DNA of 64,000 bases from a virus. A program made the position numbers and the translations under genes. The stretch covers positions 34,977 to 98,976 of IMG/VR virus record IMGVR_UViG_3300033145_000788; one strand, 5' to 3'. The notes below the pieces were generated by a model. The model saw nothing but the letters and a program-made list of their open reading frames with translations, did no database searches and was not told the origin of the DNA. Numbering within the stretch: position 1 is the stretch's first letter; every line of letters starts with the position of its first letter. Below are positions 5,377 through 5,450 of this stretch, piece by piece.

Positions 5377-5450
5377 GGGAGGGGGATTATGGCTAATTTA
5401 AAGTTGAAATCTATCCCCGGCCTGCGAATTGGTGATGATTCCCCGCTCCT
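5377..5450 (+). ncRNA. Solo TIGR unit enclosed in a terminal stem
   Basis: GCTA-atttaaagt-TGAAATCTA-tccccggcc-TGCGA flanked by complementary 5377-5390 and 5435-5450. Confidence 0.6.

Follow-up and report, generated by a model that had tools for sequence, protein, structure and literature searches.

A solitary TIGR unit beside a phage tasR gene, possibly a stem-closed variant of the dual-repeat guide precursor

Just downstream of the gene for a TIGR-associated nuclease (TasR), the phage contig analysed here carries a single guide unit that, judged by its sequence, is a genuine and perfectly conserved TIGR unit. The evidence from sequence and structure leads us to favour, tentatively, the reading that this solo unit may be a stem-closed variant of the dual-repeat tigRNA precursor and the tas-proximal first unit of the array that follows it (array 3). 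All positions refer to the window, the 64-kb stretch of DNA (bases 34977-98976 of the 98,976-bp contig) that was analysed. The order of genes at the locus is gp32-like, RecA-like (ending at 3926), array 2, tasR, solo unit, array 3 and 5'-3' exonuclease (Pfam PF02739), with array 3 ending 12 nt before the probable start codon of the exonuclease gene (ATG 5758; Table 1). The fifth, degenerate unit of array 2 (4073-4108) reads ACTA-CAATTCTCA-TTGAAGCCT-..., and a possible small hairpin seen there by eye (CAATTCTC / GAGATTG) is absent from the RNAfold prediction.

Table 1. Features of the tasR locus, in window coordinates.
Feature	Position	Strand	Description
Array 2	3929..4108	+	Upstream of tasR; four units of array 3's repeat family and one degenerate unit; without enclosing stem
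tasR	4236..5369	+	377-aa RuvC and Nop-domain TIGR-associated nuclease; candidate tigRNA-processing dyad Y349/H356
Stem 5' arm	5377..5390	+	GGGAGGGGGAUUAU; in the tasR 3' UTR, 8 nt past the stop codon
[quoted passage not shown]
Solo unit, 5' edge	5392..5395	+	GCTA
Solo unit, spacer A	5396..5404	+	ATTTAAAGT
Solo unit, loop repeat	5405..5413	+	TGAAATCTA
Solo unit, spacer B	5414..5422	+	TCCCCGGCC
Solo unit, 3' edge	5423..5427	+	TGCGA
Non-repeat insert	5428..5457	+	30 nt; contributes the stem 3' arm and an A-rich linker (AAAAAG)
Stem 3' arm	5435..5450	+	AUGAUUCCCCGCUCCU; inside the insert; 1-nt bulges G5445 and U5439
Array 3	5458..5745	+	Eight in-phase dual-repeat units, 36-nt period

The repeats of the solo unit agree with the consensus of arrays 2 and 3 at 18/18 positions, and both of its spacers end in a pyrimidine, as do 21 of the 24 other R-type spacers by our own count. 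A preliminary description of this DNA had placed the unit out of phase with array 3, and both the coordinates and the sequences on which it relied proved correct: the loop repeats at 5405 and 5471 lie 66 nt apart, every later spacing in the array is 36 nt, and the difference is due to the 30-nt insert. The core of this insert (5434-5451) has no second copy at up to 3 mismatches in the 64-kb window, and the stem arms are likewise unique there, so that we rejected the idea that insert or arms represent a repeated element. The insert was also considered as a decayed TIGR unit and rejected, since by eye only 4/9 positions match the loop repeat and the register is wrong.

The solo unit is missing the neighbouring half edge repeats on both sides, its junctions reading UUAUG/GCUA and UGCGA/AUUG as against the full UGCGA/GCUA. 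Minimal arrays have been reported to be processed only when they carry full edge repeats (Faure et al. 2025, PMC12045711). The first in-phase unit of array 3 (AAAAG/GCUA) also lacks the upstream half edge repeat, and the first full edge repeat in this array is found at 5489-5497.

The 377-aa TasR protein has no Pfam match. It does match PDB 9mty (E = 1.9e-33), deposited under the generic name IS110 transposase, which we take to be TaTasR, and it matches SpTasH (PDB 21kl, E = 3e-4); we therefore assign it as a TIGR-associated nuclease with RuvC and Nop domains. Residues D18, E56, D94 and D97 are invariant, and the RuvC domain of the phage protein is apparently active. In the SpTasH alignment, Y349 and H356 align with SpTasH Y289/H296, the catalytic dyad for pre-tigRNA processing (PMC13421893). 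This dyad marks dual-repeat systems and is missing in all stem-loop clades, and the C-terminal loop that bears it has been argued to be geometrically linked with stemless 36-nt guides (Xu et al., bioRxiv 10.64898/2026.09.09.750476). The phage protein further carries a strongly basic insertion, GRGPRVKGRANR, at residues ~289-305 (window 5100-5150), which is missing in its closest relatives (alignment A1) and falls in a segment absent from the TaTasR alignment.

The locus thus shares with the dual-repeat TIGR/TasR systems (TaTasR and ParTasR; Faure et al. 2025) the 36-nt plan of edge, 9-nt spacer, 9-nt loop, 9-nt spacer and edge, an adjoining TasR with RuvC and Nop domains, the Y/H dyad, and arrays on both sides of tas. 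It differs from them in the solo unit, which is out of phase, lacks flanking half edge repeats and has a 14-bp non-repeat stem around it, whereas dual-repeat guides have been described as uniform stemless 36-mers (Faure et al., PMC12045711; Xu et al., bioRxiv 10.64898/2026.09.09.750476). Neither Faure et al. 2025 nor Xu et al. 2026 describes a stem-closed unit within a dual-repeat locus.

The stem itself, noted in the preliminary description as about 14 bp with two bulges, was borne out by folding: it has 14 bp (8 G-C, 4 A-U and 2 G.U pairs), with both single-nucleotide bulges on the 3' arm. RNAfold adds 8 inner pairs that had been overlooked, between 5392-5399 and 5426-5433, three of them G.U, and this inner helix covers the 5' edge repeat GCUA together with the first 4 nt of spacer A. 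The extended helix (5377-5399 / 5426-5450) is nearly continuous over ~22 bp, and its inner pairs have a probability near 1.0 in every context. The 88-nt fold reaches -28.8 kcal/mol (z = -2.59; 3/200 shuffles as good). On the antisense strand the fold is no better than shuffles (-16.8 kcal/mol, z = 0.04) because five pairs are G.U, and the structure is therefore a feature of the RNA level and of the sense strand. The stem has a probability of 0.55-0.8 in 4 of 5 larger contexts of up to 1000 nt, and it survives when spacers and loop are constrained to be single-stranded (-21.4 kcal/mol). In the context 5330-5500 its outer 10 pairs are lost.

How unusual such a stem is was assessed by a flank-duplex test, in which 22 nt to the left and 30 nt to the right of a 36-nt gap were paired at every fifth position of the phage genome. 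The flank-flank duplex of the solo unit (-19.0 kcal/mol) is matched or beaten at 1.1% of plus-strand positions and by 0.54% of flank shuffles. Among the 157 TIGR units of the phage genome and a first comparison set of 32 loci (30 metagenomic and 2 viral) it ranks first, level with genuine stem-loop units, while dual-repeat units are mostly weaker than -11 kcal/mol; the first unit of array 2 reaches only -10.5 kcal/mol. In 58 further viral loci a value of -19 is attained by 1 of 358 dual-repeat units, and there a neighbour's spacer pairs with a repeat variant. The solo-unit duplex is consequently the strongest of 515 TIGR units, this one artefact excepted. The stem is moderately unusual, at roughly the 0.3-1% level, for a feature chosen after the fact among several array boundaries.

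These numbers leave substantial room for another explanation, which we consider somewhat less likely than the one we prefer: that the complementarity arose by chance, the solo unit being an ordinary first unit of array 3 that a neutral 30-nt indel has set apart and that is either processed as its neighbours are or left unprocessed, with arms that only reflect a Shine-Dalgarno-like run and a pyrimidine run. The p value of only ~0.005-0.01 for a feature picked post hoc from several array boundaries fits such an origin, as do the abundance in this phage of G-rich Shine-Dalgarno-like strings resembling the 5' arm, the loss of the outer pairs in the one unfavourable folding context, and the presence of the stem in no relative. 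Non-unit inserts also break dual-repeat arrays elsewhere without enclosing units, namely in loci L022 and L010. Chance accounts less readily for the rank of the duplex among the 515 units, for the strand specificity of the stem, and for the fact that the phase-breaking insert is itself the pairing partner; nor would it predict a CUU at the stem base and an arm composition like those of related stem-loop arrays.

Several arrays in other loci have irregularities of their own. In L022 (1560-2220) a dual-repeat array is split into sub-arrays by a recurring 26-nt A/T-rich insert, which resembles the sequence preceding the first unit and looks like duplicated leaders; in L010 two units are spaced by 152 nt. 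A 37-nt-period array from another phage (L077, 2371-2480) has one unit inside a perfect 12-bp stem, formed by the preceding unit's spacer B and the following unit's variant loop repeat, which are complementary. In L076 (1400-1540) one dual-repeat unit stands alone, 1.5 kb away from the nearest array, directly 3' of a promoter-like site (TTGCCA-N17-TATAAT) and with a hairpin downstream; the -10 region of this site is complementary to the unit's spacer A (TATTATACA).

Homologs close enough for a direct test of conservation are scarce. No relative of TasR above 41% identity turned up in 5.8 billion clustered proteins, in 1.8 billion representatives or in GenBank phages; an all-library HMMER search gave none closer, a word-index search gave 4 relatives, and the GenBank phage set one match of 32% with no DNA match. 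Homologous loci were found neither by a single-protein scan of viral contigs nor in genome contigs. The closest array-bearing loci (L003, L004 and L006, ~40% TasR identity) have plain dual-repeat arrays with no closing stem, so the stem is not conserved there, in what is at no more than 41% identity an unfair comparison. No other unit enclosed by non-unit flanks was seen among ~90 dual-repeat loci. The only public viral array with the exact repeat family of the phage (TGCGAGCTA / TGAAATCTA), on the minus strand of L034 (1905-2977), is stemless as well; it goes with a distant 290-aa TasA-like protein that has a zinc-ribbon insertion and terminates at the TGA within the first loop repeat. With regard to the processing dyad, the dual-repeat TasRs of L003 (1692-2717) and L004 (1151-2176) have Phe in place of the catalytic Tyr (PPFAQGVLGH), and the proteins of L012-L014 have Trp at this position.

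The enclosing stem has counterparts in stem-loop TIGR arrays (PlTasA, PateTasR, CsTasR and BlTasA; Faure et al. 2025, Fig. 7; Xu et al.). As in these, a palindromic stem closes a unit of two spacers, with a G-rich 5' arm, a C-rich 3' arm, and a CUU base that leads into an A/U-rich linker; the spacers are separated by a conserved 9-nt loop, a trait shared with the 'intermediate' arrays of Faure et al. (PMC12045711). In stem-loop tigRNAs the base of the stem was reported to carry CUU (Xu et al., bioRxiv 10.64898/2026.09.09.750476), and in the phage this motif straddles the base of the stem (5449-5451), a placement with a chance of ~8% within 2 nt on either side. The nearest such arrays in our own set, those of L007-L009 (TasR 35% identity), have the same 9-9-9 interior and a conserved loop repeat, with G-rich 5' arms and C-rich 3' arms that mostly end in CUU. 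Their 8-bp stem is 93% paired, with compensatory change at 8/8 pairs, and the solo-unit stem (14 bp, -19.0 kcal/mol) is at least as strong as theirs.

The solo unit departs from the stem-loop systems in being a single unit rather than an array, in keeping the full UGCGA edge, and in a stem that stands off from the boxes, with 1 nt in between at the 5' arm and 7 nt at the 3' arm; the L007-L009 stem begins at the G of GCCA and is contiguous with the boxes. The proteins differ too: the TasR beside the solo unit has the Y/H loop and an apparently active RuvC domain, whereas the characterised stem-loop TasRs have no Y/H loop and are catalytically dead (Faure et al., PMC12045711; Xu et al., bioRxiv 10.64898/2026.09.09.750476), and those of L007-L009 stop just after PY, before the Y/H loop. 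A covariance model built from 15 stem-loop units of L007-L009 (R1) did not detect the region 5377-5450 in an unfiltered search that admitted E values up to 10. The preliminary description had seen a stem-type and a dual-repeat-type guide coexisting in one locus. This is fair as a structural description, in that a genuine unit is enclosed by a stem; the offset of the stem, the retained Y/H loop and the failure of R1 to match sit badly with a plain stem-loop tigRNA.

The TasR tree is poorly resolved and too star-like to place the phage TasR, which is on a long branch; stem-loop and dual-repeat TasRs are intermixed in a polytomy. This intermixing indicates that the stem-loop and dual-repeat architectures are evolutionary neighbours in this TasR group.

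A likeness to box C/D snoRNAs, which the preliminary description had also proposed, did not survive closer inspection. The solo unit shares with box C/D s(no)RNAs and their Nop5/Nop56/58 partners a terminal stem, two guides and a Nop-domain protein dimer, but it has no K-turn of box C and box D, and its 9-nt guides are aimed at DNA. The sole RUGAUGA (GUGAUGA 5432-5438) lies on the 3' side, where it is base-paired in the helix; there is no CUGA, an Rfam search gave no match at the solo unit, and the annotated genes nearby showed neither an L7Ae nor a fibrillarin context.

The position of the hairpin raises a further explanation, a serious one to which we nevertheless assign a rather low probability: that it serves the tasR transcript as an element at the mRNA level, with the enclosed unit secondary. 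It might be a 3' stabiliser of the tasR mRNA once TasR cuts the array, an RNase III-type site between tasR and array 3, or an autoregulatory switch in which TasR, by binding or cutting the enclosed unit, removes a protective hairpin and lowers tasR mRNA. Intercistronic hairpins serve as RNase III-type processing sites in phage T7. Such a role fits a hairpin that lies 8 nt past the end of tasR and forms in the sense strand alone, as well as the length of the extended helix and the near-certain pairing of its inner part in all contexts. With no upstream half edge repeat before 5489-5497, the tasR mRNA may moreover retain the hairpin as its 3' end, and no terminator or promoter-like site was found at the hairpin, which is likewise in keeping with an mRNA element. 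A plain stabilising hairpin, on the other hand, needs no perfectly conserved guide unit in its loop, and neither the phage's own TasH gene nor tas in the related loci is followed by a comparable hairpin. We also considered a counterpart hairpin on the upstream side of tasR and rejected it as being at chance level (z = 0.01); its lack of significance likewise counts against an mRNA element.

The 3' arm segment UUCCCCGCUCCU (5439-5450) is complementary at 10/12 positions, with 7 bp perfect, to the ribosome-binding region of tasR, AGGAGCGAGAAA (4222-4233). Inverted repeats of this kind are common in the region and the pairing may be due to chance; we rejected it as a candidate, since it is at chance level.

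Very improbable, in our view, is a translational operator in which GGAGG (5378-5382) and an ATG (5389-5391) are masked by the 3' arm (CGCUCCU) in the role of an anti-Shine-Dalgarno sequence. A 44-codon open reading frame (5389-5523) does start there; it crosses the solo unit and the insert in frame and extends as far as the second unit of array 3, where a spacer supplies the TGA. The 6-nt spacing from the Shine-Dalgarno sequence to the ATG is well formed and like that of real phage starts, the 66-nt offset preserves the frame, and arrays can fall within coding sequence (Xu et al., bioRxiv 10.64898/2026.09.09.750476). The frame is nevertheless likely to be an artefact: an array built in this way always leaves one frame open, and this one just ends at the first spacer stop. 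For a peptide made from variable spacers neither a homolog nor a function can be conceived, and nothing else lies downstream to regulate.

The spacers allow a prediction of what the guides would recognise. The 3' overhangs that Faure et al. 2025 describe (PMC12045711) imply that a target consists of spacer A and, directly after it, spacer B in reverse complement. For the units at 5494-5529 and 5566-5601 of array 3 this predicts the targets GTCGGGTTCATCAACTTC and CAGCCTTTTATCAATTTC, both of which read x-x-F-I-N-F and differ at third codon positions; the pair suggests that one conserved protein motif has been targeted more than once, and it favours this arrangement. The predicted target of the solo unit is ATTTAAAGTGGCCGGGGA. 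A target search for its spacer pair, proposed in the preliminary description, turned up no match in the phage at up to 3 mismatches in this arrangement, and the IMG/VR viral contigs contain no match to ATTTAAAGT-N0-2-GGCCGGGGA; the rejected spacer arrangement gave one phage match with 3 mismatches. As neither the phage nor IMG/VR holds a target of the solo unit, nothing indicates self-regulation by DNA binding.

For the stem-closed guide precursor that we prefer, the course of events may be envisaged as follows. An operon transcript would contain the recA-like gene, array 2, tasR, the solo unit, array 3 and the exonuclease gene. On it, the 30-nt insert that separates the solo unit from array 3 would pair with the tasR 3' UTR to give a terminal hairpin, the 14-bp stem forming around the solo unit. 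A TasR dimer would then bind the unit through its intact boxes (GCUA, UGAAAUCUA and UGCGA) and melt the weak, G.U-rich inner helix. Since the solo unit is without the half edge repeats that minimal arrays need (Faure et al.), we propose that the stem takes over their job: it would tie both ends, shield them from exonucleases, and offer host RNases a CUU-marked boundary as in stem-loop arrays. The product would be a ~74-nt species; should the Y/H dyad still cut behind UGCGA, it would instead be a 36-mer clamped by the stem to the end of the tasR mRNA. One hypothesis would in this way account for two oddities, as the insert that breaks the phase is the 3' arm of the stem.

In weighing the stem-closed guide we counted in its favour the conservation of the repeats, the spacer grammar, the unusual sense-specific stem, the CUU, the likeness to L007-L009 and the shared polytomy. 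Against it we counted that there is a single instance with no TasR relative above 41% identity, that L003, L004, L006 and L034 are stemless, that the ~90 dual-repeat loci hold no second unit of this kind, that the stem is offset and GCUA and 4 nt of spacer A are buried, and that the Y/H loop is present and R1 misses the unit.

A bolder version of this reading, to which we give little credence, is that a Y/H-positive, nuclease-active dual-repeat TasR uses two formats, 36-mers and one stem-closed guide that is not normally maturable, the latter serving regulation and representing a surviving transitional form between the two architectures. Unprocessed pre-tigRNA impairs DNA cleavage by SpTasH (PMC13421893), and a stem-closed guide would therefore make TasR bind or nick rather than cut, or would tie the amount of TasR to how stable the tasR mRNA is. 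A special regulatory role for the solo unit, as the preliminary description had suggested, is pure conjecture.

Published systems are split into dual-repeat arrays with self-processing Tas proteins and 36-nt guides, and stem-loop arrays with Tas proteins that have lost the cutting loop and rely on other RNases. If the hairpin is only a 3' UTR element or a product of chance, the locus is an ordinary TIGR-TasR system. If both sets of features do coexist beside a Y/H-positive TasR, the locus would be a test case for how guide ends are made, whether a stem is accepted and how the architectures evolved, and it might show a phage tuning a nuclease by means of a differently processed guide.
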